A stretch of DNA of 64,000 bases from Pyrinomonadaceae bacterium (GTDB taxonomy: Bacteria > Acidobacteriota > Blastocatellia > Pyrinomonadales > Pyrinomonadaceae): NCBI GenBank assembly GCA_036388475.1, contig DASVRT010000020.1, forward strand, positions 18,412 through 82,411, read 5' to 3'. The first letter of the stretch is position 1; the number at the start of each line of letters is the position of its first letter. The notes below the pieces were generated by a model. That model was given only the letters and a program-made list of their open reading frames with translations, made no database searches and was not told the origin of the DNA. Below, piece after piece: positions 5,116-45,410 of the stretch. The position numbers and the translations under genes were made by a program.

Positions 5116-5139
5116 AATTTATTTGAACGATTTTTTTGA

Positions 5140-7500: not shown

Positions 7501-8799
7501 TTGAAAACCACAGCAGATTTACTGAAACCTGAAGCCAAAGATTTTATCTGGGCGGGCGGCATCGAAGACACATTCGTTCCGCAGACGCGCAACGGGCATC
7601 GCGCGCTGGACGAATACGAATTGATGGGGCATTACGAGCATTGGCGCGAAGACCTCGCGCTGGCGCGCGAGCTTGGCTTGCACGCGCTACGCTGGGGCGT
7701 GCCGTGGTATAAGGTCGAGCCGGAAGAGGGCAAATTCGATTGGAGATGGACGGATGAGGTCATCCCGTATCTGGTCGAAGATTTGAAAATCACGCCCGTT
7801 CTGGATTTGATGCATTACGGCACTCCGTTCTGGCTGAAAAAAGAATTTGCCAACAAGGATTACCCGGAGTTTGTCGCCCGTTACGCCGCCGAGTTTGCCG
7901 CCAGATACAAAGGTTTGATCAAATGGTACACGCCTCTGAACGAGCCGATTATCAACGCTTTGATGTGCGGAATGCGCGGGCTTTGGGCGCCTTATCTGAA
8001 AAAGGAACAGGGCTACATCCGGATAATGATGCAGCTGGCGAAAGGCATTATCCGCACGGTCAATGTCTTGAAGGAAATCGACCCCGAGGCGGTGATGGTT
8101 CACGTCGAAGCGACCGGCATGACGCGCACCGTGCGCGAAGATTTGTCCGTGCTCGCCAATGAAGAAACGCATCGCGGCTATCTCTGCTACGATTTGATTT
8201 CGGGGCGCATCACGCACGACCACCTGCTTTTTTCGTGGCTGGTCAGAAACGGCGCTTCGCTTAACGATTTGGACGAGATTCAGACGAATAAAATTCCGCT
8301 CGACGTGGTCGGGATGAATTTTTACCCGCAATGGTCAACCAGACAGATTTATCTGGATAAACGCGGGCGCATCGCTTTTCGCGACATCGAGCCGGAAGGC
8401 AACGGGTTTGTCGATTTGATTCGGCATTTTCACGAGCGTTACCAAGTGCCGATAATGATTACCGAAACCAGCGCCGTCGGGACGGATGAAATCCGCGAGC
8501 GCTGGCTCGAATCTTCCGTGGCGATGATAAAAAACCTGCGCGCCGGCGGCGTTCCGGTCATCGGTTACACGTGGTTTCCGCTGTTTACGATGATTGACTG
8601 GCGCTATCGTTTTTCGCACGAGCCGCTGGAAAATTTTTATCTCGAACTCGGGCTTTATAAATTAAATCGCGAAGGAAAAGGCAAGCGCTGGCTGGAAACG
8701 CCGCTGGTTGAAAAGTATAAAGGCTACATTAAATCTCCGGCTGAAGCGGTCGGAAATTTGATCGTCAAACAGGAAGAAACCGCCGAAGTATTCAGGTAA
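7501..8799 (+). CDS. GH1-like (clan GH-A) beta-glycosidase; paralog of the gene at 1..1266
   Basis: 432 aa, TTG start. FIWAGGIEDTF...WREDLALARELGLHALRWGVPW...LNEPIINA...MITETSAVG. A sigma70-like box pair lies upstream (TTGCCA ... TAAGAT). Confidence 0.75.
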   Translation: MKTTADLLKPEAKDFIWAGGIEDTFVPQTRNGHRALDEYELMGHYEHWREDLALARELGLHALRWGVPWYKVEPEEGKFDWRWTDEVIPYLVEDLKITPVLDLMHYGTPFWLKKEFANKDYPEFVARYAAEFAARYKGLIKWYTPLNEPIINALMCGMRGLWAPYLKKEQGYIRIMMQLAKGIIRTVNVLKEIDPEAVMVHVEATGMTRTVREDLSVLANEETHRGYLCYDLISGRITHDHLLFSWLVRNGASLNDLDEIQTNKIPLDVVGMNFYPQWSTRQIYLDKRGRIAFRDIEPEGNGFVDLIRHFHERYQVPIMITETSAVGTDEIRERWLESSVAMIKNLRAGGVPVIGYTWFPLFTMIDWRYRFSHEPLENFYLELGLYKLNREGKGKRWLETPLVEKYKGYIKSPAEAVGNLIVKQEETAEVFR

Positions 8800-8845
8800 A
8801 AGTGAAAAGTGAAAATTAATTTGATTTTCACTTTTCACTTTTCGT
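8798..8845. terminator. Hairpin terminator built from tandem GTGAAAA heptamers (family A)
   Basis: AAAAGTGAAAAGTGAAAA - loop - TTTCACTTTTCACTTTT, placed between the convergent stops at 8799 and 8855. Confidence 0.6.
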
Positions 8846-8854
8846 TTTTCACTT

Positions 8855-9286
8855 TTATACGCGTGCGTCATCGGTTCTGACATCAGTGCGCGTTAAAAAG
8901 CCTCCAATCAAAAAAACCAGACCGAGCAGAACATGAACGATATGGTCCATCGTGCCCAATTCCAAAGCGCCGGGCAAAACGTGGAGCATATGGGTGTTGG
9001 TGCCGCCGTCGGTCAGATTCGCCGGCAAGCCCGTCGCCGTGCCGGAGTTGAACAAAAATCCCGCCACGCCGAGCAGCAAATAAACCGCACCAAACGCAAG
9101 ACAGAATAATCTGGCGGCGGAAAGCGAGCCTTTCAAGCCCAGATAAAGCGCGACCGCGCCTGAAATCAGATGAATCAGGTTATGCGTCATACTCAGATGC
9201 GTGCCCATAAAATTATCGGAAATAAAGCCGACTAGACCAACCAGGATAAAAACTATGCCCAATATGGTAGCTATTGTTTTTGCCAT
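8855..9286 (-). CDS. DUF4383-like small membrane protein
   Basis: 143 aa with four predicted TM segments; THNLIHLISGAVALYLG pattern. Confidence 0.65.
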   Translation of the reverse strand: MAKTIATILGIVFILVGLVGFISDNFMGTHLSMTHNLIHLISGAVALYLGLKGSLSAARLFCLAFGAVYLLLGVAGFLFNSGTATGLPANLTDGGTNTHMLHVLPGALELGTMDHIVHVLLGLVFLIGGFLTRTDVRTDDARV

Positions 9287-9505: not shown

Positions 9506-9623
9506 AGAGAAGTGAGAAGTGAGAACTGAGAGCTGAGAAGTTTTAAACGACGCGCCCTAAACTCTAATCAGTAAATTGAAAATTCAACACTTCTCAATTC
9601 TCAGTTCTCACTTTTCACTTTCC
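9506..9623. terminator. Long hairpin (arms ~33 bp, loop ~49 nt) built from (G/C)TGAGAA heptamers (family A)
   Basis: AGAGAAGTGAGAAGTGAGAACTGAGAGCTGAGAAG at 9506-9540 pairs with CTTCTCAATTCTCAGTTCTCACTTTTCACTTTCC at 9590-9623. It overlaps the aminopeptidase stop at 9615. Confidence 0.5.
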
Positions 9624-12479
9624 GTATTTGTCGCGAATCTTCACGGCTCTTTCCAGCGCATCGGCGTTTTCCAGAATCTTCAGGCGCAAATCCTTATCCA
9701 GACTCGGATTATCCGCCAGAAACTTATTCACCGCCGCCCGCGCCTTTTCGTCTTTTTGCCCGCCGATAAACGCCGCGAGCCAGCCGTTGACGAAAAAGAT
9801 TTTGCGGCTGCGTTTCAGGTTCGGCAATTCGGCAAGGGCTTTTTCCAGAAACGGCAAAGTCGATTCGGAATGGCGAACTGAATTAAACGGCACGAAAGCC
9901 GCTTCAATCCAGCTTTCGGAAATTTCTTTATTGTTCAGAAAATCGTTGAAATATTTCTCCTTCGCTTCTTGTGTTCCGAAGCCCGCGCCGACGGCGTAAG
10001 CGTAGCGTTTCGCGTCGTCCGAAGTTTCGGCTTTCACTAAATCCGCGAGCAGTTTCGCCGCGTCCGCGTCATTGAGAATGGCGAGTTTCGTCACGATGTC
10101 GAATTTGTCCTTGGTCTTCAAGGGCGGGAATTCCACCGTCCCGTTTTTGTATATTTCCGCTACTTTCGGCTTCACGGCTCGCGGCTTGTAATTGGAATTT
10201 TCCGCGCTCTGAGCGATTGAATCAAGTAAGCCGCGCTTCAAAACATTTCGCGCGTTTTCCGTCGAAGCAATATTCAAAAACGCGCGGTAAAACGTTATTC
10301 GCTGTCCGAGCGTCGGCGCGCGGCGGATTTTTTCGATTAAAAGATTTTCGAGCGGCGGCGCAGCTTCGGCTCTCTGCGCGTCGGAAAGATAATAATTCAT
10401 CGCCGTCGAAACGCGATTGAGAATCGTGCCGATAGTCAGCTCGTCGGTTTCGACGGCGATATTTTTAATTGCCAGTTCGACGTAATCTTTCGGATTCAGC
10501 TCGGCTTCGCGCACCGAATCCCAGAGCGTGCCCCACATCATCGAGCGCAGAAAATCGTCCTTTTCGTTCTGGATATTTTTCAGAACGTATTCGCGGCTTC
10601 GCTCGTCGAGCAGAAAAATTCCGTAGCCGTAATCCTGATAGTTCGGGAAAATAAATTCGGGATTTTCAGGCGGCGAAGTGTAGATAAGAGTTCCGTCTTT
10701 CCACATCGTGGCGGCTTGTTCCGGCGGAATTTTCGCTGAAATAATTTCTTTTTCATATTTTTCACCGCTGTTTTTTACGAGCAAAACTTTAAGCCGCTGC
10801 CGCCGGAATGTGTCTTCGTCAAATACATTCTGCTGCCTGATAAAGGTTCTATCCATACCGCCGGCGATGGAATAGATTCTAAAAATCGACAGCCCGCGCT
10901 TTGTCACCCAGACGTTTGCCCAATCTTTTAAATCCTGCTGGCTCGCCGTTTCAAACTCCCTGACCAAATCCGTCCATTCCGCGTTTTTGAATTGATATTT
11001 CTTCAAAAACGCGCGCACCGCCGTTTGAAATTTATCTTCGCCGAGATAAAATTCAGCCTGCCGCAGAAAGCTCGGCGCTTTGCGGTAGACGATGTTGCCG
11101 TAAGCCGATTTCGCCGCCGAAAGATTCGTGATTTCCTGGTAAATCGGCGTCGTGCCTGCGGTCGAATCGGTCAGGTAAGCGAGCGGTTTGTTGCGCTCGT
11201 AGAAGGCTTTCCACGCGTCGTATTCGGGCATCGTTTTTTCCAGCGTTTTATACGCCATAAATTCGGCGAAGCCTTCCTTGAGCCACAAATCGTCGAACCA
11301 TTTCATCGTCACCGTGTCGCCGAACCATTGATGCGCGGCTTCGTGAAAAATGACGTTGGCGCGCGACACTAAATCGTTTTTCGTCGGCTCGGACGGAAAA
11401 ATAACGGAAGATTCGCGCAGGAAAGTCGCGCCCGCGTGCTCCATCCCGTTAAACGGAAATTCGGGAATCAAAACGAGGTCGTATTTCGGAAACGGGAATT
11501 TGTAATCGAACCAGCCTTCAAGAAACCGCACGCCTTCGCGGTTAAGCCGAAAAACTTCCGCCGCGTGCTGTTCGAATTTTTTAACTTGCGATCTGCGGAC
11601 ATATATTAAACCTTTATCTTTAGCAACAGTTGATTTAATTGATTCAAATAACTTTTCACGTTGCGTATCATCATCCGGTATATCTTCTGTTTTAAGGTAA
11701 AATCCCTTAAGAGATTCGCTAAAACCAACAAATCTTCCAGCCGCAAATGCAAAAACGTAAGTTGAAATCGGTTTTGTTTCAGTGAAAACCGTCAAATACA
11801 CGCCATCGCTAGAGGGATTTTTAGCAAGACTTTCGCCAGTAGGGTTAATCAGGAATTTGGATTTTGTGTTACTTTCCTCTGATAAAGGTGTATTACTTAT
11901 CACTTTCCAAGAGCCCGGCGTTTTTACGTTCAACTGAAATCTCGCCTTCAAATCCGGCTGGTCAAACACGGGCAGCGCCGTGCTGGCGTCAGACGGCACG
12001 AACAAAGAATAGACGTATTCCGCGCCGTCTTCCTTATCGACGTAACGTGTAACAGCCGCGCCTGACGTTTTGATTGGCGAAGCAAACCGGATTTTGATGA
12101 CGTTCGCGCCCGTTTTCAGCGCGCCTTTCGGAATAATCAGGTGTTCTTTGCTGACGCTTGAGATGACGTCAATCGTATTGTTGACGGCGACGACGTGAGC
12201 GTAAGGCTTCTCCTTATCATTGGCAAACTGCGTCGTCCGCCAGTCGAGAATCAAATCGTTTTTCGCGCCTTCTTCGGTTAAATTAACGCTAATTTCAAGC
12301 TCGCCCTTCATCAGCGGCGCGCCTTTTTCGAGCGTGATGTCCAATTTATAACGCACGTCCGAGTAATGCGCCGCGCGCCATTTCGCCAGCGTCCGCGGAA
12401 CGCCCGTTTCGATTGCCGGAATTTGCGGATAAACAGTCATCGTCAATAAAAACGTGAAAAGCAGAAATCGTAGCAACAT
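9615..12479 (-). CDS. pepN: M1-family aminopeptidase (aminopeptidase N-like), secreted
   Basis: HEAAHQWFGD...WLKEGFAEF is the gluzincin HEXXH-(18)-E motif. About 950 aa. The likely start is the ATG at 12479 (MLLRFLLFTFLLT signal peptide) rather than the ORF-track start at 12539. Confidence 0.85.
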   Translation of the reverse strand: MLLRFLLFTFLLTMTVYPQIPAIETGVPRTLAKWRAAHYSDVRYKLDITLEKGAPLMKGELEISVNLTEEGAKNDLILDWRTTQFANDKEKPYAHVVAVNNTIDVISSVSKEHLIIPKGALKTGANVIKIRFASPIKTSGAAVTRYVDKEDGAEYVYSLFVPSDASTALPVFDQPDLKARFQLNVKTPGSWKVISNTPLSEESNTKSKFLINPTGESLAKNPSSDGVYLTVFTETKPISTYVFAFAAGRFVGFSESLKGFYLKTEDIPDDDTQREKLFESIKSTVAKDKGLIYVRRSQVKKFEQHAAEVFRLNREGVRFLEGWFDYKFPFPKYDLVLIPEFPFNGMEHAGATFLRESSVIFPSEPTKNDLVSRANVIFHEAAHQWFGDTVTMKWFDDLWLKEGFAEFMAYKTLEKTMPEYDAWKAFYERNKPLAYLTDSTAGTTPIYQEITNLSAAKSAYGNIVYRKAPSFLRQAEFYLGEDKFQTAVRAFLKKYQFKNAEWTDLVREFETASQQDLKDWANVWVTKRGLSIFRIYSIAGGMDRTFIRQQNVFDEDTFRRQRLKVLLVKNSGEKYEKEIISAKIPPEQAATMWKDGTLIYTSPPENPEFIFPNYQDYGYGIFLLDERSREYVLKNIQNEKDDFLRSMMWGTLWDSVREAELNPKDYVELAIKNIAVETDELTIGTILNRVSTAMNYYLSDAQRAEAAPPLENLLIEKIRRAPTLGQRITFYRAFLNIASTENARNVLKRGLLDSIAQSAENSNYKPRAVKPKVAEIYKNGTVEFPPLKTKDKFDIVTKLAILNDADAAKLLADLVKAETSDDAKRYAYAVGAGFGTQEAKEKYFNDFLNNKEISESWIEAAFVPFNSVRHSESTLPFLEKALAELPNLKRSRKIFFVNGWLAAFIGGQKDEKARAAVNKFLADNPSLDKDLRLKILENADALERAVKIRDKYGK

Positions 12480-14068: not shown

Positions 14069-15499
14069 TTAATTCGATAAACTCTTGATGATTTTTTGGC
14101 GGTAAAGGTTTGCGTCTTTCTTTATAGCATTTTCGTCGAGCGTTAGCAAACGTTTTTCGCGCATTATTATTTTTCCGTTGATAATGACGGTATTTACGTC
14201 CGCGGCTTTGGTCGCGTAAACGAGGTGAGAATAGTAGTTATAGAAAGGCGTCTGGTGCAGATTGTCAAAATCGACGAGCACGATGTCGGCGCGTTTTCCG
14301 GCTTCCAGCGAGCCGATTAAATTTTCCAGATGCAAAGCGCGCGCGCCGCCGATGGTCGCCATTGCAAAAGCCTGTTCGGCGTTGACGACTTTCGGGTCGC
14401 CCGAATAAAGCTTGTGCAGCTTTGCCGCCGTGTCCATCTCTTCCCACATATCGAGGTCGTTGTTCGAAGCCGCGCCGTCCGTGCCCAGACCGAGCCTGAC
14501 ACCGGCGTTCAACATCTGCGGCACGGGCGAAACGCCGGAGGCGAGCTTCATATTCGACTGCGGATTGTGCGCCACGCCGACGCCGCGCGATTTTAAAATC
14601 TGAATCTCGTTATCGTCGGCGAAAACGACGTGCGCGGCGATGGTTCGATTATCTAAAAAATTGATGCGATTCAGATACTCGACCGGACGCGCGCCGTATT
14701 GTTTGGAAATATCGTCAACTTCCTTTCGCGTTTCGGCGACGTGAATGACCACGGGCGCGCCGAGCTTATCGGAAAGATTTTTTATCGCTCTTAAATGGTC
14801 GGTCGTTAAAGTATACGGCGCGTGCGGCGCGAGCGCGGGGACGATTAACGAATGATTTTTCCATTTGTTGACGTATCTTTCGCCGTAGCGCATCGCTTCT
14901 TCGGGCGTTTTGTTGTCGGCGACCGGAAATTGAATAATCGTTTCGCCCAAAACGCCGCGCACGCCGGCTTTCGCGGTTTCGTCGGCGACGGCGTCTTCAA
15001 AATAATACATATCGCAGTAGGTCGTCGTGCCGCCGCGAATCATTTCCGCCAGTCCGAGCCGCGTGCCGGCGCGCACGAAAGCTTCCGTGACGTTTTTCGC
15101 TTCGGCGGGAAAAATGTATTTCGTCAGCCATTCGTTCAAATCCAAATCGTCGGAAATGCCGCGAAAAAGCACCATCGGAACGTGCGTGTGCGTGTTGATT
15201 AAACCGGGAATGATGACTTTGCCGTTGGCATTTATGGTCTGGCGCGCGCGCAGATTTTTGGTCACGGCGGCGCGTTTGCCGACCAGCGCGATTTCGCCGT
15301 TTTTGACCACGACCGCGCCGTCTTCAATCACGCGGCGGTTTTCGTCCATCGTGACGACCGTGCCGCCGACGATTAATAAATCGGCATTCCAGTTCGGAAC
15401 GATTTTTTGCGGTAACGGTTGTCGCTGAGCAAAGCCGGACGGCGGGAGAATTAAAAGAATCGAAACAAATACGAGCAATAAAATTTTCAACTTTTCCAT
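14069..15499 (-). CDS. Secreted amidohydrolase-family metal-dependent hydrolase
   Basis: GLINTHTHVPM metal-binding motif; about 475 aa. Start at the ATG at 15499 gives MEKLKILLLVFVSILLILPPSGFAQ. Confidence 0.8.
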   Translation of the reverse strand: MEKLKILLLVFVSILLILPPSGFAQRQPLPQKIVPNWNADLLIVGGTVVTMDENRRVIEDGAVVVKNGEIALVGKRAAVTKNLRARQTINANGKVIIPGLINTHTHVPMVLFRGISDDLDLNEWLTKYIFPAEAKNVTEAFVRAGTRLGLAEMIRGGTTTYCDMYYFEDAVADETAKAGVRGVLGETIIQFPVADNKTPEEAMRYGERYVNKWKNHSLIVPALAPHAPYTLTTDHLRAIKNLSDKLGAPVVIHVAETRKEVDDISKQYGARPVEYLNRINFLDNRTIAAHVVFADDNEIQILKSRGVGVAHNPQSNMKLASGVSPVPQMLNAGVRLGLGTDGAASNNDLDMWEEMDTAAKLHKLYSGDPKVVNAEQAFAMATIGGARALHLENLIGSLEAGKRADIVLVDFDNLHQTPFYNYYSHLVYATKAADVNTVIINGKIIMREKRLLTLDENAIKKDANLYRQKIIKSLSN

Positions 15500-21040: not shown

Positions 21041-21123
21041 TAGTACAGACTAAGCAAATAAATTTTATCAGGTTTGTTTGGTCAATAATGCACAAAGAAA
21101 TTTTTGTTTGGAGGAAAATTACA

Positions 21124-21645
21124 ATGAGCATTGTTAAATATGACCCTTTTCGTGATTTACGCAGTTTACAGGATGAAGTGAATCGTTTGTTTTCGATGAG
21201 TTTTCCGCGCGGCGGCGCGCAGCAGGATGAAGTGATGCGCGGCGCGTGGACGCCGAGCGTCGATATCTACGAAGGCAAAGACGAAATCGTGCTCGAAGCC
21301 GAGCTGCCGGGAATGAAACCGGAAGACGTCGACGTTTCGATTGAAAACAACATCATCACCGTTCGCGGCGAGCGAAGATTCGAGAAAAAAGACGAATCGG
21401 ACAATTATCATCGCGTCGAGCGCAGCTACGGCTCGTTCACACGTTCGTTTACGCTGCCGCGCAACGTCGTCGGCGACCAGGCGAAAGCCGATTTTTCAAA
21501 CGGCGTTCTGCACATAACACTGCCGAAGCGTGAAGAGGAAAAAGCGCGCAAAATTCAGATTTCGGGCGCTTCGACGGGCGAATCGCGCACGATTGAAACG
21601 AACGCGACCGAGACCAAGGAACAAGCAAACACGGCTAATGCCTAA
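21124..21645 (+). CDS. Small heat-shock protein (Hsp20 / alpha-crystallin family)
   Basis: MSIVKYDPFRDL...WTPSVDIYEGKDEIVLEAELPGMKPEDVDVSIENNIITVRGER. GGAGGA Shine-Dalgarno upstream. Confidence 0.9.
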   Translation: MSIVKYDPFRDLRSLQDEVNRLFSMSFPRGGAQQDEVMRGAWTPSVDIYEGKDEIVLEAELPGMKPEDVDVSIENNIITVRGERRFEKKDESDNYHRVERSYGSFTRSFTLPRNVVGDQAKADFSNGVLHITLPKREEEKARKIQISGASTGESRTIETNATETKEQANTANA

Positions 21646-21650
21646 TTTTT

Positions 21651-21724
21651 ATTTACAGGGATGACAGGGATAGACAAGGATGAATAGCTATTTATATCCT
21701 TTTCATCCTGTTATCCCTGTAAAT
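21651..21724. terminator. Family B hairpin (ATTTACAGGGAT ... ATCCCTGTAAAT) between hsp20 and clpB
   Basis: Perfect 12-bp outer inverted repeat plus inner CAGGAT/ATCCTG repeats, followed by T-rich sequence. Confidence 0.5.
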
Positions 21725-21741
21725 TTCTTTTGACAAAAAAA

Positions 21742-24339
21742 ATGAGATTTGACAGATATACAATTCGCGGACAGGAAGCGATTCAGGAAGCCATCGGAGT
21801 CGCCGAAAAAAATCAGAACCAGCAGGTCGAGCCGGAACACCTGCTCGCGTCGATGCTTGAGCAGAAAGAAGGAACGCTGCGCCCGATTTTGGGAAAAATC
21901 GGCGCGCGCACCGAAAATGTTTTAACGGACGTGGCGGCGGCGATTGCCAAATTTCCGAAGGTTTCCGGCGGGCAGCAATATTTTTCCTCGCGCATCAACA
22001 CGATTTTTCAAACCGCGCAGAAGGAAGCCGAAAAAATGACGGACGAATATATTTCGACCGAGCATCTGCTGCTGGCGATCGCCGACGAAAAAGAAGGCGA
22101 CGCCGGACGCATCCTGCGCTCGAACGCCGTGACGAAGGAAGATATTGAAAAAGTCGTCACCGATATGCGCGGCGGCGCACGCATCACCGACCAGAACGCC
22201 GAAGAAAATTTTCAGGCGCTGGAAAAATACGCTCTGGATTTGACGGAACGCGCGCGGAAAGGAAAGCTCGACCCGGTCATCGGACGCGACGACGAAATCA
22301 GAAGAACGATTCAGGTTCTTTCGCGCCGCACGAAAAATAATCCGGTTTTAATCGGCGAGCCGGGCGTCGGCAAAACGGCGATTGTCGAAGGCTTGGCGCA
22401 GCGAATCGTTTCGGGCGACGTGCCGGAAACCTTGAAAAACAAGCGTCTCGTCGGTTTGGATTTGGGTTCGATGCTGGCGGGCGCAAAATATCGCGGCGAG
22501 TTTGAAGACCGTCTGAAAGCGGTTTTGAGAGAAATCGAAAAATCGGACGGGCAGATTATTTTGTTTATCGACGAGCTTCACACTTTGGTCGGCGCGGGCG
22601 CTTCGGAAGGCGCGATCGACGCTTCAAATATGTTAAAGCCCGCGCTGGCGCGCGGAATGCTGCGCTGCGTCGGCGCGACGACTTTAAACGAATATCAGAA
22701 ACACATCGAGAAAGACAAAGCTTTAGAGCGGCGTTTCCAACAGGTTTACGTCGGCGAGCCGAACGTCGAAGACACGATTGCGATTTTGCGAGGTTTGAAA
22801 GAACGCTACGAAGTTCATCACGGCGTGCGGGTCAAGGATTCGGCGATTGTCGCCGCGGCGACTTTATCGAATCGCTATATTACCGACAGATTTTTGCCCG
22901 ACAAAGCGATTGATTTGATTGACGAAGCGGCTTCGCGCCTCAGAATCGAAATCGACAGTTTGCCGCAGGAAATCGACGTTTTGGAGCGCGAGATTCTGCA
23001 ATTGGAAATCGAGCGCCAGGCGCTTTCGCGCGAAACGGACGAAAAATCGAAAGAACGACTTGCCGACATCGAAAGACGCATCGCCGATTTAAAGGAAAAA
23101 TCCGGCGCGATGAAGGCGAAATGGCAGTCGGAAAAAGAAGAAATCGAAAAAATGCGCGGCGCAAAAGAACAGCTTGAAGAAGCGAAACTTCAGCTTGAAC
23201 AGGCGCGTCAGGCGGGTGATTTGAACAAAGCCGCCGAGTTGCAGTACGGGCGCATTCCCGAACTCGAAAAGCTTCTGGGCGAAGAACAATCGCGGCTCGC
23301 CGATTTGCAGAAAGACGGCGTTTATCTGAAAGAAGAAGTCGACGAGGAAGACGTGGCGGAAGTCGTGGCGAAATGGACGGGCGTTCCCGTTTCCAAGATG
23401 CTCGAAGGCGAGATGCAAAAATTGGTGACGATGGAAGACAAGCTCCGCACGCGCGTTATCGGTCAGGACGAAGCGCTCGAAGCGGTGTCGAATGCGGTTC
23501 GCCGCGCCCGCGCCGGGTTGCAGGACCCGCATCGTCCGGTCGGCTCGTTTATCTTTTTAGGTCCGACCGGCGTCGGTAAAACCGAGACGGCGAAAGCTTT
23601 AGCCGAATTTTTATTTGACGACGAGCGCGCGATGATTCGGCTCGATATGTCGGAATATATGGAAAAACACGCGGTCGCGCGGATGATTGGCGCGCCGCCC
23701 GGATACGTCGGGTACGACGAAGGCGGGCAATTGACCGAAGCCGTCCGCCGCCGCCCGTATTCGGTCGTTTTATTCGATGAAATCGAAAAAGCGCACCCGG
23801 ACGTTTTCAACGTTTTGCTGCAAATTCTGGACGACGGTCGTTTGACCGATTCCAAAGGTCGCGTCGTCGATTTCAAAAACACGGTTTTGATTATGACCTC
23901 GAATTTAGGCTCGCGCGAGATTTTATCGGTCGGCGACGACCAGACTCAGGTGCGCGAAGCCGTCCAGCAGATTCTGCGCGATTACTTTAAACCGGAGTTT
24001 TTAAATCGTATCGACGACATCGTGGTTTTCGGTCAGTTATCGCGCAAGGAAATCGAACAAATTATCGAGGTGCAGCTTGAAAAACTGCGAAAAAATCTCG
24101 CCGAGCGCGGCATCACGATTGTGCTCGAAGATTCGGCGAAGGAATTGCTGGCAAACGAAGGCTACGACCCGAATTACGGCGCGCGACCTTTGAAACGCGC
24201 GATTCAGACGCTGGTTCAGAATCCGCTCGCGGTCAAGCTTTTGAAAGGCGAAATCGCCGGCGGTCAGACCGTCCACGTAACGGCGGACGACGGCGGACTG
24301 AATTTCACGCCGCAGGCGACGGCGACCGCTTCGGCATAA
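21742..24339 (+). CDS. clpB: Chaperone ClpB (Hsp100 disaggregase)
   Basis: Two AAA+ modules with a long coiled-coil middle domain. N-terminus [13 protein letters not shown] aligns with the ClpB start, so the ATG at 21742 is preferred over the TTG at 21730. Confidence 0.95.
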
Positions 24340-24345
24340 GATTTT

Positions 24346-24425
24346 AACAGGGATTTTGGAGGTAAACAGGGATTTTGGAAGATTGCTTTATCCTTAGTCT
24401 ATCGCCTCCATCCCTGTAAATTTCC
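24346..24425. terminator. Family B hairpin downstream of clpB
   Basis: AACAGGGATTTTGGAGG occurs twice, then ...CGCCTCCATCCCTGTAAATTTCC. Confidence 0.4.
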
Positions 24426-24480
24426 TTTGCGATAGATGGTTTGTTAGACTGATTTATCAGCAAATCGTTTATCAAAATTT

Positions 24481-25167
24481 ATGAGTTGGTTTAAGAAAAA
24501 AAATATGAACAGCAATAATGAGCAGGATTACAATCAGGAAATTGAAGAACCGACGGAAGAACTGCCCGTCAACGATAAGCGCCGCTTCAACACCGAAGGC
24601 GAGCGTGTTCGCGTCGAAGTCAAGGACGAAGCCGAAAACCCGAAACAAAACGTCAAATCGCAACGCGAAACCGAGCTGGAAAATCGCTTGAAGGAAGAAA
24701 CTATGCGGCGCGAAGCCGCCGAAGCCAAGCTCGTCGGCGTGCAGGCGAAATTTGAAGAAGTCAAAACGCAGATGGAGCGCGAAACGCAGGAAATGCGCTC
24801 GCGGATGCAGAAAACTTTGGAAGACCGCGCCAAGCAGGGACAATTCAGCTTTCTGACCGCGCTGCTGCCGGTTCTGGACAATCTCAACCGCGCGATTCAG
24901 GCGAGCGAAACCGACGCTTCGTTTGAGCATCTGCTGGACGGCGTGAAAGGCACGGCACGCTCTTTCGAACAGGCTTTGATAAGCGTCGGCGTCGAGGCGA
25001 TTCCGGCAACCGGAATGGACTTTAATCCCGAGCTTCACGAAGCGATTGATATGATTCAGGTCGAGGCGGAACAAGACGGCAAAATCACGGCGGAATACTC
25101 GCGCGGCTACAAATTCGGCGAACGCCTTCTGCGCCCGTCCAAGGTTCAGGTCGGTCGCGGAAAATAA
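24481..25167 (+). CDS. grpE: Nucleotide exchange factor GrpE
   Basis: Coiled-coil N-terminus; LLPVLDNLNRA and GYKFGERLLRPSKV C-terminal motifs. Confidence 0.85.
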   Translation: MSWFKKKNMNSNNEQDYNQEIEEPTEELPVNDKRRFNTEGERVRVEVKDEAENPKQNVKSQRETELENRLKEETMRREAAEAKLVGVQAKFEEVKTQMERETQEMRSRMQKTLEDRAKQGQFSFLTALLPVLDNLNRAIQASETDASFEHLLDGVKGTARSFEQALISVGVEAIPATGMDFNPELHEAIDMIQVEAEQDGKITAEYSRGYKFGERLLRPSKVQVGRGK

Positions 25168-25180
25168 AAACGTATTTCTT

Positions 25181-27450
<2,270 letters not shown>

Positions 27451-27522
27451 AATCGGGCGCAGTTACATAAAAGCCGCGCCGCACGCAATAAATGCAGCGT
27501 ATTAAGACGAAGAATCGGGTTT

Positions 27523-27793
27523 CAAGCCTGATTCTTTAGTTTTTCAACCTGAACGATTAGCTTCCGGACCTAAACGATTAGGTTCGAGACCTAATCCATT
27601 AGCCTTGAAACGTATCCGATTAGGTTCCGGACCTAATCGTTTAGGTCAAAACGTGCTCCGACCAGCTTTCAAGCCTAATCCATTAGGTTCAAGACCTAAT
27701 TCTTTAGGTTCGAGACCTAAAGCTTTAGCCTTTGAACCTAAACGGGTGATGATTTGACCTAATCGCGGCACGATTGAACCTAAAGCGAGCGGC
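27523..27793. repeat. Array of ~13 tandem 21-bp units, each carrying an ACCTAA half-site; several form full palindromes ACCTAA-N4-TTAGGT
   Basis: ACCTAA occurs at 27568, 27588, 27631, (27673), 27694, 27715, 27736, 27757 and 27777, a 20-21 bp periodicity. Perfect units include GACCTAATCGTTTAGGTC and GGACCTAAACGATTAGGTTC. Confidence 0.7.
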
Positions 27794-28040
27794 TTTATCG
27801 AGAGTTGTTTCGTGAAAAGGGACAATCGTTTTGAGTTTCGCCGGAAAGCGAATTGATTTGGAGACGGCTTCCGGCAATTTTTATCAGATAAATTAGCGAA
27901 ACGAATCGGCGGGTTGATGAAAAGCGCTAATCTGCCGATTTGTTTCTTGTCTTTTGTTACTTTGAAAATGTTACAATGTTTCCGGGCATAAATTGTCGCT
28001 CACACGGCATCTAAAGTTTCAGGAGCAGTAAGAGAAATTT

Positions 28041-30320
28041 ATGACAGACTTAGAAGCCTATAAAGATAAATTCAGCGACAGCGGCAGGCGTGTTCTGGAC
28101 GGCGCGATGAACGAATCGAGACGTCGCGACCAGAATTATATTTCTATCGAACACATTCTGCACGCTCTGGCTGACGAGGAAGCCGAGCTTTTTAATTCGA
28201 CGATGCGCGACCTTTCGATTGACCCGCGCACCGTTCGGCTTCTGTTGGAAAAACGCCTTGAAAGCACCCGTGCGCATACGGGCAAAGGCTTTCGCATCGC
28301 GCCTGAAACGACCGACCTTTTTAAACGCTCGATGGAACGGGCGCGCTCGCAGGGTCGCCGCGTGATTGACGGAAGCGATATTTTTTATGTCGTCTCGACT
28401 GACGAGCGCAGTCTTTTAAACGACATTCTGCAAAATTTGGGAGTTCCTTCGGACGAAGTAGCTTCGACGGCGCGAACGCGCATCAAATCGCGCGAGCAGG
28501 AAGAAGAGCGCACGCGCAAAAAATACGAATTGCCGTCATACTTAAAACATTTCGGCGTGAGCCTTAATAAGCTCGCGCGCCAAGACAAGATTCCGCCGAC
28601 CATCGGACGCGAATTGGAAATCCGCCAGATGCTGGAAATTCTCTCGCACCGCGAGCGCTCGAATTCGCCGATGCTCGTCGGCGAGCCGGGCGTCGGCAAA
28701 ACCGCCGTCGTCGAAGGCTTGGCGCGGCTTATCGAACTCGAACCGGAAAAAGTTCCCGAACGCCTGCGCAACGCTCACATCGTGCAGCTGCAAATGGGCG
28801 GCTTGGTCGCCGGAACGATGCTGCGCGGAATGTTTGAAGAACGCATCAAAGGCATCATCGACGAAGTCAAGGAAAAGAGCGATATTATTCTTTTCATCGA
28901 CGAGGCGCACACGATTATCGGCGCGGGCGCGGCGCTCGGCACTTCCAGCGATGCGGCGAATATGTTCAAATCCGCTCTGGCGCGCGGCGAGCTGCGCATC
29001 ATCGGCGCGACGACGATAACCGAATACAAGGAATACATCGGCGAAGACGAAGCGCTGGCAAGACGTTTTCGTTTAGTCAAAGTCGATGAACCGACGATTA
29101 GCGAGACCAAGGAAATTCTTTTGGGTTTACGTCCGCGACTGGAGAAAAATTATTCGGTGACGATTTCCGACGAAGCCATCAACACGGCGCTGGAAATGGC
29201 TCCGAAATACATTCGCAATCTGCATCTGCCCGATAAGGCAATCGGCTGGCTCGATACGGCTTCGGTCAAAGTCGAAATCAACGAGCCGACTTCGGCAGTC
29301 GTCAAACCCGAACACATTATCGACGTCATCTCGCAGGAATCGCGCATTCCGAAAGATATGATTTTCCGCGACACGACCGACCGCTTCTCGCATATGGAAG
29401 ACGTTTTAGGTCAGCGCGTTATCGGTCAGAAAGATGCGGTCAAAGCCGTCGCGCAAAGGCTGCGTCTCAATAAAGGACCTTTGAAGGAAAATCATTACAA
29501 ACCCGACGGCGTTCTTTTATTTTTAGGACCGACCGGCGTCGGCAAAACCGAACTGGCGAAAGCGGTTGCCGAATTTATGTTCGGCGACGAAGAGAAAATG
29601 GTGCGCATCGATATGTCGGAATACGGCGACGGCACGGTCGGCATCGAAAAGCTGATCGGAATGCCGCGCGGCATCGTCGGCTCGGAACGCGGCGGAATTC
29701 TCACCGAACAGCTTCGGGAAAATCCGTACACGGTTCTGCTGCTGGACGAAGTCGAAAAAGCTTCGCCGTATTTAATGAATTTGTTTTTGCAGGCTTTTGA
29801 CGAAGGCTGGATGACGGACGGGCGCGGCAAGAAAGTTTATTTGTCGGACGCGATTGTCATTATGACTTCGAATTTAGGCTCGGAAAGTTTCAAGAAATAC
29901 GAAAAACCGCTCGGCTTCGGGCAGAAAACTCTGGGCGACATCCGCGAAATCAAAGGCGCGGCGATGAAAGCCGCCGAACAGCGTTTCTCGCCGGAATTCC
30001 GCAACCGTATTGACGAAATCGTCGTCTTTTCGCCGTTGATGATGGACGAGGTGCGCGAGATTGCGCGGCTTTATCTGAGCAAATTAAAACGCCAGATGGA
30101 ACGGCAGGGCAAAATCATCGAAATCACGGAAAAAGCGATTGAGCTCGTCACCGAAAAGGGATACAGTCCCGCTTACGGCGCGCGTTTTCTGAAACGTTTT
30201 ATTGACGAGAAGGTGAAGCTGCCGATTACCAATGACTGGAAACTGGCGATGCGCTTTATCGTCGATGCGGAAGACGGCGAGGTAGTCGTCAAAACAATGG
30301 ATGCTTTCAGCTTAAATTAA
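28041..30320 (+). CDS. ClpA/ClpC-type Hsp100 unfoldase with a ClpP-docking loop
   Basis: N-terminal Clp_N repeats; Walker A motifs [10 protein letters not shown] and [11 protein letters not shown] about 280 aa apart (ClpA-like spacing). The sequence KPLGFGQK aligns to the ClpA IGL/IGF ClpP-binding loop. Confidence 0.8.
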   Translation: MTDLEAYKDKFSDSGRRVLDGAMNESRRRDQNYISIEHILHALADEEAELFNSTMRDLSIDPRTVRLLLEKRLESTRAHTGKGFRIAPETTDLFKRSMERARSQGRRVIDGSDIFYVVSTDERSLLNDILQNLGVPSDEVASTARTRIKSREQEEERTRKKYELPSYLKHFGVSLNKLARQDKIPPTIGRELEIRQMLEILSHRERSNSPMLVGEPGVGKTAVVEGLARLIELEPEKVPERLRNAHIVQLQMGGLVAGTMLRGMFEERIKGIIDEVKEKSDIILFIDEAHTIIGAGAALGTSSDAANMFKSALARGELRIIGATTITEYKEYIGEDEALARRFRLVKVDEPTISETKEILLGLRPRLEKNYSVTISDEAINTALEMAPKYIRNLHLPDKAIGWLDTASVKVEINEPTSAVVKPEHIIDVISQESRIPKDMIFRDTTDRFSHMEDVLGQRVIGQKDAVKAVAQRLRLNKGPLKENHYKPDGVLLFLGPTGVGKTELAKAVAEFMFGDEEKMVRIDMSEYGDGTVGIEKLIGMPRGIVGSERGGILTEQLRENPYTVLLLDEVEKASPYLMNLFLQAFDEGWMTDGRGKKVYLSDAIVIMTSNLGSESFKKYEKPLGFGQKTLGDIREIKGAAMKAAEQRFSPEFRNRIDEIVVFSPLMMDEVREIARLYLSKLKRQMERQGKIIEITEKAIELVTEKGYSPAYGARFLKRFIDEKVKLPITNDWKLAMRFIVDAEDGEVVVKTMDAFSLN

Positions 30321-34430: not shown

Positions 34431-34490
34431 GATGAACGCGGAACGCGGAATTGCAGTTTTTGCGTATCGAATTCCGCGTTCCGCGTTCCG
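34431..34490. terminator. Bidirectional hairpin built from tandem GAACGCG heptamers (family C)
   Basis: GATGAACGCGGAACGCGGAATT - loop - AATTCCGCGTTCCGCGTTCATC, between convergent stops. Confidence 0.6.
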
Positions 34491-34508
34491 CGTTCATCGT
34501 TCTCCGCT

Positions 34509-41869: not shown

Positions 41870-41905
41870 TGATACCTTTTTGCATCTCCTTTTCGCTTTA
41901 GTTGG
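41870..41905 (+). promoter_or_regulatory. Candidate promoter, instance d: TGATAC-N18-CGCTTTAG
   Basis: TGATAC at 41870-41875; CGCTTTAGTTGG from 41894. ATG at 41940. Confidence 0.4.
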
Positions 41906-41939
41906 CAGAGACCGATTTTTTTCCCGAGGGAGACACGAA

Positions 41940-43415
41940 ATGCAAAGCAATTATCTTATTAAATTCGCAGTTTTAATTATCTGTTTAATTTCTTCAAACG
42001 CCGTCTATGCCGACGTTAAAATCAAGACGCGGCAGACGGTCGGCGGGCAGACCTCCGAAAATACGACCTATATCAAAGGCAAACGCCAGCGCTCGGAGAT
42101 GATGGGCGGAAAAATGGTTAGCATTACGCAGTGCGATTTGCGCCGCGACGTGCAGATTATGCCGGACGGCAAAGTTTATATGGTCAACCCGTTTGACGGC
42201 GGCGCGGCGGCGCAGGCGAACGAAAACGTGTCGCAAACGCAGACGACGACCAAGCTCGAAACCGGCGGAACGATTACGATGACCTACACGACCAAAGACA
42301 CCGGCGAGCGCAAACAGATGTTCGGCTACACGGCGAAACATTTGATTATTACGATGGAATCGGTCGCTTCCGCCGATGCCTGTATGAAAAACAACAGCAA
42401 GATGGAGATGGACGGCTGGTATATCGACGCCGCCTGGTATTTTCAATGCGACCGCGGCTATGCGGGCGGCTACACGCCGAAAAGCCAGAAAGCCGGCTGT
42501 CAGGACAAATACGTGATGAAGCAGGTCGGCACGGCGAACCGCGGTTATCCGGTCTGGGAAAAAATGACGATGTACGATGCAAGCGGCAAGGAAATGATGA
42601 CGTCGCTCAACGAAGTCGTCGAGCTTTCGCAAGCCACTCTGGAAGCTTCGCTGTTCGACATTCCGCAGGGCTACCGCGAAGTTAAAGATTCGTCCGAGCT
42701 GTATGCGAGTATGTCGAGCCAATCGAGCAGCGGTCAGTCGAGCAACGGCAGCACGACGAGCGGCGGCAATAACGGCAATTCCAATAGTTCTTCCAATTCC
42801 GGTATGAGCCGGAACGTGCAGAATATGTCGAAATCCGAACCGGACATTTCGACGACGGTCGGCGCGAAAAAAGAAGGTACTGTCCGCATCGGCTTGGCGG
42901 GCGTGAAAACCGGCGCGGTCGGCGAAGGCTTGAAGGCGGCGGAGCTTGCCGGAGCGATTCGGAGCACGCTCGGCGAATATCTGAAAGGCACGAAGATTGA
43001 GCTGGTTCAAATCGAAGCCAGCCTCGCGACGGCAATCGAAGCCGAAGCCAAGCAGAAGGAATGCGATTACGTTCTTTACGCGCAGGTTTCGCACAAAAAA
43101 GGCGGCGGCGGTTTCGGAATGTTCTCGAAAATCGCGCCCGCCATCGGCAACATCGTGCCGGTCGCAGGAATCGGAAGCAGAAGCGGACAAATCGCCGGAC
43201 AGGTTGCCAACACCACGATTTACACGGCGGCAAACGCGGCGGGCAACGTCAAATCGAAAGACGAATTGACGCTCGAAATCAAGCTTAATTCAACCGGCGG
43301 CGCGACCTCTCTCGCCAGGCAGTATAAAACGAAAGCCAAATCCGACGGCGAAGACATCATTTCCCCGCTCGTCGAACAGGCGGCGACCGCGATTCTGGAA
43401 ACGGTCGGCAAATAA
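41940..43415 (+). CDS. Secreted protein with a C-terminal module related to the 'AVLPF' (TolB-N/LpoB-like) modules of the giant kinases
   Basis: Signal peptide MQSNYLIKFAVLIICLISSNAVYA; Ser/Asn/Gly-rich linker. The C-terminus ...KSKDELTLEIKLNSTGGATSLARQYKTKAKSDGEDIISPLVEQAATAILE is paralogous to the C-terminus of the 45470 protein. Confidence 0.55.
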   Translation: MQSNYLIKFAVLIICLISSNAVYADVKIKTRQTVGGQTSENTTYIKGKRQRSEMMGGKMVSITQCDLRRDVQIMPDGKVYMVNPFDGGAAAQANENVSQTQTTTKLETGGTITMTYTTKDTGERKQMFGYTAKHLIITMESVASADACMKNNSKMEMDGWYIDAAWYFQCDRGYAGGYTPKSQKAGCQDKYVMKQVGTANRGYPVWEKMTMYDASGKEMMTSLNEVVELSQATLEASLFDIPQGYREVKDSSELYASMSSQSSSGQSSNGSTTSGGNNGNSNSSSNSGMSRNVQNMSKSEPDISTTVGAKKEGTVRIGLAGVKTGAVGEGLKAAELAGAIRSTLGEYLKGTKIELVQIEASLATAIEAEAKQKECDYVLYAQVSHKKGGGGFGMFSKIAPAIGNIVPVAGIGSRSGQIAGQVANTTIYTAANAAGNVKSKDELTLEIKLNSTGGATSLARQYKTKAKSDGEDIISPLVEQAATAILETVGK

Positions 43416-43550
43416 ATCAGAAAAGTGTCATCATCCGAACCTCCTTTTTGAGACGGTCTTCGCTCGACCGTCTCTTTTTTTATTGGCGGCAGGTTTCGGG
43501 CGAAAATGTATGAAAAGCGAACGAAATCTGCGGTTTTATAGAGGACAAAT

Positions 43551-43762
43551 GGCGTTTGGCAACTGCCGAAGCGCTTCCGGCAATTGCCAAACCGATTCCG
43601 GCAACCTCCGGAAAGCGTCCGGCAACTGCCGAATTCGGTCCGGCAGCTTCCAAACGCCGCTCGGCTAATTCCAAATCTCATACGGCAGCTTCCGGAAGCC
43701 TTCCGGCAACTGCCGAACTGCGTCCGGCTTCTTCCGAACTGCGTCCGGCTTTCGCCGAAACT
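43551..43762. repeat. Array of ~10 tandem 21-bp units (consensus TCCGGCAACTGCCGAAnTGCG), each with a short internal palindrome
   Basis: Units start at approximately 43553, 43574, 43595, 43617, 43638, 43660, 43683, 43701, 43722 and 43743. The array is translated as a spurious QLPNxVR repeat in ORF 43584. Confidence 0.7.
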
Positions 43763-43822
43763 TATTTATCCGAAGCCATTTGAAGGCAGGCAGCCGGAAA
43801 CGGGCGAATTATATATTTTTTT

Positions 43823-44317: not shown

Positions 44318-45361
44318 ATGACTACGCAAACACACGCCGCCGCGCTCGCGCCGGAAATGCCGACCGAAGCCGTTTTGGGGCAAATCCTGATGGGCGCTTT
44401 TACGTCGCAAGCCGTCTATGTCGCCGCCAAGCTCGGCATCGCCGATTTGTTGAAAGATAATCCGCGCCCGGTCGCGGCATTAGCCGCCGAAACAAATACC
44501 GACGCCGACGCGCTTTACCGCGTTCTGCGCGCGCTGGCGAGCATCGGCATTTTTGCCGAAACCGCGCCGAAAACTTTCGCGCTCACGCCGTTTGCCGAGC
44601 CGCTTTTGAGCGACCGCCCGGGCAGTATGCGCGAGATGGCAATCTGGATTGGCGAAGAAGCGCACTGGCGCGTTTACGGCGAGATGCTTTACAGCGTCCG
44701 AACGGGCAAACCCGCCTGGGAACGCGTCCACGGGCAGGAAGCTTTCCCGTACCTGTTTGAAACCGACCGCGCGCTGGGCGATATTTTCAACCGCGCGATG
44801 ACCAGCTTTTCGTCGAGCGTCGCGCCGGCTATCGCGCAGGCTTATGATACGTCGGAAGCGAAAACGCTGGTCGATATCGCCGGCGGTCACGGGCTTTTGC
44901 TTTCGGCATTTTTGAAAACGAATCCCGATTTAAAAGGCGTTTTGTTCGACGTGCCGACGGTTATCGAAGACGCGGGCGCGCTGCTCGAAAGCGAAGGCGT
45001 CGCCGAAAGAGTCGAAGCCGTGACGGGCGATTTTTTCCAAAACGTTCCGGCGGGCGGCGACCTTTATATGATGAAACACATCATTCACGATTGGGACGAC
45101 GCGCGCGCGCTCGCCATCCTGAAAAACATTCATTCGGCGATGAACGAAAACGGCAGGGTTTTAATCGTCGAGATGGTCGTCAAAGAAGCGAACGAGCCGG
45201 ATTTCAGCAAGATTATGGATTTGGAAATGCTCGTCACGCCCGGCGGCGTCGAGCGCACGGCGGAAGAATACCGCCAGCTGCTGGCGCAAGCCGGATTTCG
45301 CCTGACGCGCATCATCCCGACCGCTTCGCCATATAGCATTGTCGAAGCCGTTAAAGCTTAA
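44318..45361 (+). CDS. SAM-dependent O-methyltransferase (class I, family 2, with N-terminal dimerisation domain)
   Basis: LVDIAGGHGLLL...VLFDVPTVI...GDFF..VPAGGDLYMMKHIIHDWDD. It lies 17 nt after the 43908 gene, so the two are probably co-transcribed. Confidence 0.85.
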   Translation: MTTQTHAAALAPEMPTEAVLGQILMGAFTSQAVYVAAKLGIADLLKDNPRPVAALAAETNTDADALYRVLRALASIGIFAETAPKTFALTPFAEPLLSDRPGSMREMAIWIGEEAHWRVYGEMLYSVRTGKPAWERVHGQEAFPYLFETDRALGDIFNRAMTSFSSSVAPAIAQAYDTSEAKTLVDIAGGHGLLLSAFLKTNPDLKGVLFDVPTVIEDAGALLESEGVAERVEAVTGDFFQNVPAGGDLYMMKHIIHDWDDARALAILKNIHSAMNENGRVLIVEMVVKEANEPDFSKIMDLEMLVTPGGVERTAEEYRQLLAQAGFRLTRIIPTASPYSIVEAVKA

Positions 45362-45363
45362 CT

Positions 45364-45410
45364 GAAAGCTGAGAACTGAGAATCGTTTTCAATTCTCAGT
45401 TCTCAGCTTT
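45364..45410 (+). terminator. Hairpin terminator (family A, CTGAGAA heptamers)
   Basis: AAAGCTGAGAACTGAGAAT-cgttttc-AATTCTCAGTTCTCAGCTTT. Confidence 0.6.

Follow-up and report, generated by a model that had tools for sequence, protein, structure and literature searches.

In the present study we analyzed an array of short palindromes that lies between groEL and a ClpA/ClpC-like gene in a 64,000-nucleotide stretch of DNA (hereafter called the window), the source of which was placed in Pyrinomonadaceae (Acidobacteriota) by its ClpA-like protein. Alignment with related loci showed the array to be one copy of an apparently low-copy, dispersed, polar repeat element of Pyrinomonadaceae, which was found at about four other loci. 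The alignments also indicate that the half-sites of this element are under purifying selection and that their spacing is held exactly. Among the explanations considered, the one that we think most likely, and hold tentatively, is that the array loads a DNA-binding protein. That is, the element would be a sequence-specific array that acts as double-stranded DNA and presents its sites on one face of the helix.

Layout, alleles and conservation of the array

The array consists of 13 units of 21 bp, which keep an exact register without a single insertion or deletion from 27526 to 27798 when the sequence is laid out at 21 bp. The groEL stop (27450) precedes it and the ClpA/C-like start (28041) follows it. 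The register runs on upstream to 27484 by way of two degenerate in-phase units, and the onset of the array is 34-76 nt past the groEL stop. The distance from the array to the ClpA-like start is 248-520 bp, a correction of the 180-450 bp given in the initial annotation of this DNA.

The 21-bp period proposed in that annotation was confirmed both by the layout and by the autocorrelation of 27484-27798, which was 0.54 at lag 21, 0.51 at lag 42 and 0.53 at lag 63, and 0.35 or less at the other lags from 1 to 63. Tandem Repeats Finder reported a period of 21 with 7.9 copies. In the window, the lag-21 identity exceeded 0.5 at two places only, namely the groEL/clpA array and a second array at ~43478-43792. 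The description of the array as about 13 palindromes of the form ACCTAA-N4-TTAGGT also held, since 13 units were found, three of which are perfect (27568, 27631 and 27694; GACCTAATCGTTTAGGTC occupies 27630-27647). All eight copies of ACCTAA in the window, and five of its eight copies of TTAGGT, lie within the array. When up to two mismatches were allowed, ACCTAA-N4-TTAGGT matched at eight places in the window, all in the array; the shuffle expectation was 0.64, and none of 100 shuffles reached eight.

The features of the locus are shown in Table 1. In the ten two-arm units the arm centres are alternately 10 and 11 bp apart, and therefore every half-site would lie on one face of the helix. The 5' module of the window (27488-27508) is a degenerate, out-of-register copy. 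The unit beginning with CGTGCT is kept at the equivalent place in the L112 copy of the element, which is at a different locus (retrieved sequences are referred to by L numbers).

Table 1. Features of the groEL/clpA-like intergenic region and its neighbours (window positions).
Feature	Position	Strand	Basis and remarks
groEL (Cpn60)	25828..27450	+	Upstream neighbour, outside the element; Pfam Cpn60_TCP1 on the identical product in L001, L003 and L105
Two degenerate in-phase units, including a degenerate 5' module copy (27488-27508, CAATAAATGCAGCGTATTAAG)	27484..27525	+	Alignment with CCCAATAAAAAT[GC]RGCATCRYATTAGG of L096, L112 and L113
Predicted intrinsic terminator of groEL: hairpin 27509-27537, then TAGTTTTTC	27509..27547	+	Terminator scan; also part of the predicted minimum-energy fold
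Ten 21-bp units (6-nt arm, 4-nt centre, 6-nt arm, 5-nt spacer) with inverted half-sites ACCTAA/TTAGGT	27526..27735	.	Layout and motif search
Degenerate unit CGTGCT-CCGA-CCAGCT, 77% complementary to the terminal half units	27652..27672	.	Inverted-repeat search; layouts of the window and L112 compared
Three direct half units, left arm only: ACCTAA-ACGG, ACCTAA-TCGC, ACCTAA-AGCG	27736..27798	+	Order of centres matches L096, L101, L112 and L005
TGTTACAAT, extended -10-like box of the clpA-like gene	27969..27977	+	Outside the element, ~170 bp downstream; conserved in species without the array
ClpA/ClpC-like AAA+ unfoldase	28041..30320	+	Downstream neighbour, outside the element; Pfam Clp_N, AAA, AAA_lid_9, AAA_2 and ClpB_D2-small

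The half-sites were examined in a logo of 41 family units, which read RACCTAAW-NN-WTTAGGTY with mirror-symmetric information content; degeneracy is tolerated at the outer positions of the arms. The orthologous pair tested for selection was L096 and L101, in which nine units stand in the same order 3' of an EamA gene. The two EamA proteins are 74% identical, and their genes are 56% identical at third codon positions, so that neutral sites are near saturation. In units 1-7 of this pair, the arms were identical at 76 of 84 positions (90%) and the loops and spacers at 38 of 63 (60%; Fisher p = 1.9e-5). No small indels were found within the elements (~200-320 bp) of the window, L096, L101, L112 and L113, and the flanking intergenic DNA of L096 and L101 could be aligned only with gaps.

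Strains with a 100% identical ClpA-like protein carry three alleles of the array: 12 units in L003, 13 units in the window and L105, and 15 units in L001/L106 and L002. The alleles differ by whole units only, and one extra unit has a sequence that is absent from the window, which argues against a simple collapse during assembly. Likewise, the occurrence of the array in five independent assemblies with three alleles argues against an assembly artefact.

The loci of 80 related species were retrieved via the ClpA-like protein (84-94% protein identity). Together with the window these loci, L004-L083, make up 1.4 Mb of Pyrinomonadaceae DNA from ~80 related species. In the closest species (L004, ClpA-like protein 94% identical), groEL is followed by the clpA-like gene and the array is absent, although the clpA-like gene keeps the same conserved promoter and leader. 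The next closest species (L005, 93% identical) has a short version of the array in which the half-sites have decayed. In species with a ~87% identical ClpA-like protein, the clpA-like gene is not beside groEL, and the extended -10 box and the leader are still conserved. Because the array is absent from L004 and decayed in L005, it is evidently not a conserved control element of groEL and the clpA-like gene, and by the same comparison the clpA-like promoter does not need the element. Such a control role had been implied by the initial annotation, and it is further contradicted by the presence of the element beside unrelated genes elsewhere.

Ahead of the clpA-like gene, in the window (27940-28040) and at the equivalent places in L004-L013, a TGTTAYRAT box is followed by GGCA...GGCATCAAAG.... 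This region, a candidate for a conserved promoter and 5' leader, is kept across species, including those in which another gene lies upstream. The sigma-70 scan gave no full match at the -10-like box of the clpA-like gene, and we infer the promoter status of TGTTACAAT.

Copies and relatives of the element at other loci

A metagenome scan for two adjacent units gave 20 loci, and a protein search of gene-caller translations gave two more. All of the 20 metagenome loci are tandem runs of units, mostly 4-20 in number, some of which end at a contig edge. Among the Pyrinomonadaceae copies the modules follow one another in a fixed order and in one unbroken 21-bp register, with no copy possessing every module. 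The first is the 5' module, CCCAATAAAAAT[GC]RGCATCRYATTAGG; the second is the set of 21-bp units with both arms, that is, with inverted half-sites, in variable number; the third is the odd internal unit CGTGCT-CSGA, seen in the window and L112; the fourth is a unit ending in TTAGCC; and the fifth is the set of half units, which have the left arm only and 4-nt centres in the order ACGG, TCGC, AGCG. Each element has two to six of these terminal left-arm-only units. The order of their centres is common to L096, L101, L112 and L005, with AGCG occurring only where a third half unit exists.

The element occupies the groEL/clpA-like locus in the window and L005. In L096, L101 and L112 it follows an upstream gene (alaS or another) and is followed by a convergent EamA gene; the L112 copy stands between alaS and a shared bidirectional terminator. 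In L113 it lies beside PatA_N and S13-peptidase genes, and in L102 beside pilin-like genes. L100 has an array of related units, the end modules of which were not recognised, in the context of a KDPG aldolase and a periplasmic binding protein. The EamA homologues are labelled Pyrinomonadaceae by their sources. The EamA protein of L107 is 90% identical to that of L101, yet the element is absent from the EamA locus there, as it is in L108 and L110. An nhmmer profile search over the 1.4 Mb found no copies beyond L005, which indicates that the family is low-copy. The literature searches found no description of the motif or of such arrays.

The search of related genomes and neighbouring genes that the initial annotation had called for accordingly yielded further copies, and these lie beside unrelated genes (EamA, alaS, pilin-like genes and others). 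As to conservation in close relatives, which that annotation had also raised, the array is absent in L004 and decayed in L005, and the same modules recur at other Pyrinomonadaceae loci. The element has the head-to-tail repeats (21 bp, within the 10-100 bp of this class) and the strain-variable copy number of a minisatellite, or variable-number tandem repeat. It also has modules shared among the groEL, EamA, L113 and L102 loci, as do modular dispersed repeats of the BOX/MIRU kind.

We considered whether the array had grown out of the groEL terminator. This idea was dropped because copies at other loci share the same 5' module. From this sharing, it is more likely that the groEL terminator evolved from the first degenerate units of the element than the reverse. 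The terminator hairpin is kept in L005, with a G.U to A-U change. Around the window copy no terminal inverted repeats or target duplications were found, only the internal symmetry of the array itself.

Several related observations were made outside these loci. L095 (6993-7410) and L098 (1604-2042) carry the same long array, with 20 and 21 units respectively, which adjoins an AT-rich stretch. This array also ends in left-arm-only units. From the two counts, another lineage likewise varies in copy number. In a lineage of 37-41% GC, L103 (3190-3463) and L099 (~1325-1685) have an ACCTAA-type array within a ~270 bp unit that is bounded by inverted repeats (CCTGAGTTCGA / TCGAACTCAGG) and occurs at two different loci; the unit has the look of a miniature inverted-repeat transposable element. 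ACCTAA arrays were found in contigs of 30-41% GC as well. Finally, L112 has a cluster of short hairpins at 9930-10060, between alaS and the element, with the cores GGCTTTAGCC, GGCTAAAGCC and CAGCTAAAGCTG, which may be another small repeat family.

Possible roles of the array

The loading of a DNA-binding protein would proceed as follows. The element would work as double-stranded DNA, with half-site centres every 10-11 bp on one helix face. Each inverted pair, together with its neighbours, would be occupied by a dimeric, sequence-specific protein, and the bound dimers may build a continuous one-face nucleoprotein array, like that of origin iterons or plasmid centromeres. It is plausible that such an array would insulate or form a barrier where genes end, or that it would titrate its binder as a sink. 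At the groEL locus, the first degenerate units would have become the hairpin of the groEL terminator. We suspect phased sites for a sequence-specific dimer because the arms are conserved, the outer positions are degenerate, the spacing is fixed and the terminal units have a single arm. The suggestion in the initial annotation of an operator or iteron array for a dimeric protein on one face of the helix seems to fit best, in view of the selection on half-sites, the exact spacing and the presence of the motif in a phage rep-O gene.

This phage gene is on the viral contig L104 (IMGVR_UViG_3300016457_001097). About five TTAGGT-N5-ACCTAA palindromes, four of them in 21-bp phase, lie there at 5108-5260, directly after the DNA-binding domain of a Phage_rep_O protein (E = 1.6e-15), and they encode LGKxPKx heptads inside the Phage_rep_O gene. 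The iterons of oriLambda lie inside gene O, after the DNA-binding domain. By analogy, the L104 palindromes are probably lambda-type origin iterons embedded in an initiator gene. The viral scans found the motif on this single contig only, and BLAST of the array against plasmid and phage collections gave no match. The arrays of other lineages have no tie to a transcript context: some are located between divergent genes and others at the ends of genes.

Several points weigh against protein loading. No binding protein or shared neighbour gene was found when the flanks of the metagenome arrays were searched with Pfam and PHROGs; the neighbours are unrelated housekeeping genes. The selection test had one orthologous pair that was informative. 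The element is dispensable at the groEL/clpA locus (absent in L004, decayed in L005) and at the EamA locus (L107, L108 and L110). The ACCTAA arrays of other phyla may be convergent, since the search pattern itself required the motif. Moreover, the 21-bp period could be a slippage bias rather than helical phasing. We tallied the non-coding tandem arrays of at least three copies and at least 40 bp in L004-L083 and the window, and 21 of 26 had a period that is a multiple of 7, namely 7 (14 arrays), 14 (2), 21 (3), 42 (1) and 63 (1). Other 21-bp arrays in these genomes (the second array of the window, L033 and L023) have unrelated palindromic cores. Two observations would suit a transcript: three of the four independent orientable loci of the family are co-oriented with the upstream gene, as an element of a 3' untranslated region (UTR) would be, and the fold predicted for the + strand is very stable (-121 kcal/mol, z = -8.95). 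In addition, conserved arms without covariation could also be expected if any left arm pairs with any right arm in the transcript.

If the half-sites load a protein, the element would be a compact, natural, helically phased array on the chromosome, tied to no replicon or promoter. It would belong to a poorly studied soil phylum, and would offer a biochemical handle in its 16-18-bp symmetric site repeated 10-20 times. Such a defined sequence family could be used to ask why bacteria keep these arrays, whether as barrier, titration sink or organiser, and it would be a link to the long-noted, unexplained excess of heptamer-multiple repeats in bacterial intergenic DNA.

An extended form of protein loading, which we regard as unlikely, is that there is a class of orphan iterons, that is, undescribed chromosomal arrays of phased half-sites that load protein away from replicons in Pyrinomonadaceae and possibly in other phyla. 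Orphan iterons could serve as decoys or handcuffing sinks for the initiators of phages or plasmids, or as centromere-like organisers of the nucleoid. Such biology would then have left its footprint in the excess of 7n-bp and 21-bp palindromic arrays across the family.

The strongest rival to protein loading is that the array is a selfish or near-neutral modular minisatellite of the BOX/MIRU type, which spreads occasionally, slips in 21-bp (3 x 7) steps and has no host role; in a variant of this explanation, the conservation of the arms reflects the needs of propagation or a mutational process such as palindrome-templated repair. We consider it a genuine possibility, though a doubtful one. The copy number varies between strains, the element is patchy among close species at both loci examined (groEL/clpA and EamA), the L005 copy has decayed, and the family is low-copy, with none further in the 1.4 Mb of related loci. 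The preponderance of multiple-of-7 periods (21 of 26) points in the same direction, in that polymerase slippage has been given as the cause of the heptamer-repeat excess of bacteria (PMC4692102). The arrays within long open reading frames (ORFs) of the same 1.4 Mb have periods that are mostly multiples of 3. The ~270 bp unit bounded by inverted repeats, with its array at two loci of another lineage, is also as expected for an element that spreads. However, comparison at one fixed orthologous locus showed 90% conservation and no indels in the arms, whereas the neighbouring positions have diverged to about the synonymous level, and neither neutral decay nor homogenisation of whole units would spare the arms alone. 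Palindrome-templated repair predicts co-varying arms, and none were seen. The search around the window copy for terminal inverted repeats or target duplications, which found none, also weighs against this explanation. Even as a selfish minisatellite, the array would be a strain-typing marker for uncultured Pyrinomonadaceae, and a caution that gene callers make small hypothetical proteins from such arrays.

A role at the RNA level seems rather improbable to us. According to this explanation, read-through from the upstream gene would yield a highly structured 3' UTR, which would hold off 3' exonucleases or strengthen termination, like REP/BIME of E. coli. The array does begin just past the groEL stop, its first units form the terminator, and the place of the L112 copy between alaS and the bidirectional terminator, the co-orientation at three of four loci and the stable fold described above are in its favour. 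However, the arms of the same unit gave 614 pairs, compared to 605.5 +/- 7.9 for arms shuffled within arrays (p = 0.16), that is, there was no unit-specific covariation. There were 60 G.T and 43 A.C combinations, no clear excess on the sense strand, and arm positions 2 and 15 were C.C or G.G in 18 of the 41 units, none of which was compensated. The half units keep a single arm and cannot form hairpins. The loops and spacers are fixed at exactly 4 and 5 nt without indels, a constancy that hairpins do not need, and the minus strand folds almost equally well (z = -6.5). Furthermore, the arrays of other lineages lie between divergent genes, and that of the window is downstream of the predicted groEL terminator.

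The initial annotation had proposed at the RNA level a string of about ten small hairpins, similar to a CsrB-type protein sponge. The predicted single-strand fold consists instead of a few long composite hairpins, which any array of palindromes would form. Sponge RNAs of the CsrB/RsmZ type present many GGA motifs in hairpin loops, but GGA occurs twice in the array, both times in spacers. Rfam gave nothing for the whole window at gathering thresholds; with permissive E-values, the array and ten related loci gave only miRNA-precursor and tRNA matches below gathering scores, most of them far below. Together with the lack of covariation, the mismatches in 18 of 41 units and the one-armed terminal units, these results speak against the sponge. 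We nevertheless keep an RNA role as a minor rival, because pairing of any left arm with any right arm also gives conservation without covariation.

It is very improbable that the array is a heat-shock operator array for groEL and/or the clpA-like gene, analogous to CIRCE/HrcA or CtsR. The location is suggestive, as the array sits in a chaperone cluster (window 21088-30320) of Hsp20, ClpB, GrpE, a Uma2-family gene, GroEL without an adjacent GroES, and the ClpA/C-like gene. Nevertheless, L004 has the same gene pair, promoter and leader with no array, the species with a ~87% identical ClpA-like protein keep the promoter motif though the gene is not beside groEL, the element also adjoins EamA, alaS, pilin-like and other genes, and the array ends ~170 bp upstream of the -10 box. 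CIRCE (TTAGCACTC-N9-GAGTGCTAA), which precedes chaperone genes and is conserved across species, had no match within three mismatches in the window.

A small gene for a heptad-repeat protein (P-K/N-x-L-G-x-x) is hardly conceivable, and the comparisons below effectively refute the coding reading, in agreement with the initial annotation. Each strand has one frame that stays open throughout the array, small ORFs were placed there by gene callers, and the 5' module of L096 and L113 has an in-frame ATG. However, the frame is not kept intact in relatives: that of L101 contains a stop and lacks the ATG, L112 has ATC for ATG, and the window has no start codon before 27605. The differences between L096 and L101 number 11, 9 and 13 at codon positions 1, 2 and 3. 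The would-be Pro and Leu codons show little change at the third position, which is 93-95% fixed (CCT and TTA); the conservation is mirror-symmetric and not codon-like. The ORFs of the array had no Pfam matches, and two whole-database protein searches gave miscellaneous heptad repeats only. Public gene calls over arrays as hypothetical proteins of 59-107 aa were noted at L002 796-1017, L003 3847-4026, L112 10001-10324 and L113 3445-3705. Small-protein calls of this kind are most likely artefactual, a result of the open frame to which the palindromic unit gives rise on both strands.

Two further identities were rejected. The array is not a CRISPR array, as the initial annotation had also stated: a 16-bp palindrome and a 5-nt spacer between units make up the 21-bp period, compared to CRISPR repeats of 23-50 bp with unique spacers of similar length. 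Nor is it the RNA repeats of a type III toxin-antitoxin system, which directly precede the gene of a ToxN-type endoribonuclease; here a ClpA/C-like AAA+ gene follows, and the neighbours of the other copies are unrelated.

Comparison with known systems and with other arrays

The array has much in common with origin iterons (oriLambda in gene O; R6K, pPS10 and P1 incA). In both, tandem sites are phased at about two helical turns, there is internal dyad symmetry in 4-13 copies, and inverted and direct versions of one half-site occur together. The strict 21-bp register agrees with iteron repeats of 17-22 bp phased at about two turns, and the identical ACCTAA/TTAGGT motif stands at the iteron position of the L104 Phage_rep_O gene. 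Iterons are accompanied by a cognate initiator gene in cis, and by DnaA boxes and/or an AT-rich unwinding element. In contrast, the window array has no DnaA box (within one mismatch) or adjacent AT-rich block, and no Rep/O-like gene was found among the window ORFs scanned, which were part of the total; its neighbours are groEL and the clpA-like gene. The element is instead chromosomal, in ordinary intergenic DNA, at several loci and with strain-variable copy number. The window array therefore appears iteron-like in design, but by this comparison is not a member of the iteron class, because no DnaA box or AT-rich block adjoins it and no initiator gene was seen among the ORFs scanned.

Tandem-palindrome plasmid centromeres, such as F sopC and parC of pSK41 and R1, are phased protein sites that nucleate a protein filament. 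They resemble the element in their short palindromic sites placed head to tail in helical phase. They differ in that there are no partition genes near the element, which has several copies per lineage in housekeeping contexts.

The BOX repeats of Streptococcus pneumoniae and the MIRU repeats of mycobacteria, the function of which is debated, are likewise dispersed intergenic elements with conserved end modules, variable internal tandem units and strain-level variation in copy number. Their units are of 45 or 40-100 bp, compared to 21 bp here, and, unlike them, the present element is made of symmetric half-site pairs in strict helical phase and is low-copy. REP/BIME/REPIN sequences are similar to it in that their palindromic units are clustered in intergenic DNA, often at the 3' ends of genes or between convergent genes. 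REP sequences are imperfect palindromes of 20-40 bp, which are present in high numbers per genome and are associated with a RAYT transposase. A REP carries a tag, GTAG or CGTC, at one end of its palindrome (PMC3733652). There is no GTAG, CTAC or CGTC in 27484-27798, and its one GACG is outside the consensus. REP/BIME also have alternating orientation and variable linkers, as opposed to the strict 21-bp head-to-tail order here, and their copy number is far higher than that of the element (one copy in 64 kb, none further in 1.4 Mb). The CsrB/RsmZ sponge RNAs share with it repeated short motifs capable of forming hairpins, but the element has no GGA loops, Rfam match or covariation. Taken comprehensively, the design of the element would seem closest to origin iterons and tandem-palindrome centromeres, and its genomic behaviour closest to BOX/MIRU and REP/BIME.

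The second array of the window (43555-43770) is intergenic and has ~10 units of 21 bp, TCCGGCA-AC-TGCCGAA-N5. Its plan of 7 (arm), 2 (centre), 7 (arm) and 5 (spacer) nt is that of the groEL/clpA array, with an unrelated core. It lies past the terminator of the ORF 41880-43415 and upstream of an O-methyltransferase gene, and no further copies were found in the retrieved loci. More intergenic 21-bp arrays are at L033 14701-14889, L023 ~14530-14750 (minus), L056 4757-4886 and L030 6392-6459. They mostly have palindromic cores, of other sequence (GTCACGTGAC/GTTAGCTAAC; GATTCTTAAGAATC), and the L033 array has two different perfect palindromes alongside intermediate forms.

Heptamers were also seen at gene ends, as hairpins with tandem-heptamer arms. 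In the window these lie at 8797-8856, 9507-9620, 34434-34495 and 45360-45406, and also at 56990-57009 and 62675-62705; for example, (AAAAGTG)n is opposite (CACTTTT)n, and (GAACGCG)n is opposite (CGCGTTC)n. The loci of other species (L033, L044 and L045) also contain related heptamers, GTGAAAA and CTGAGAA.

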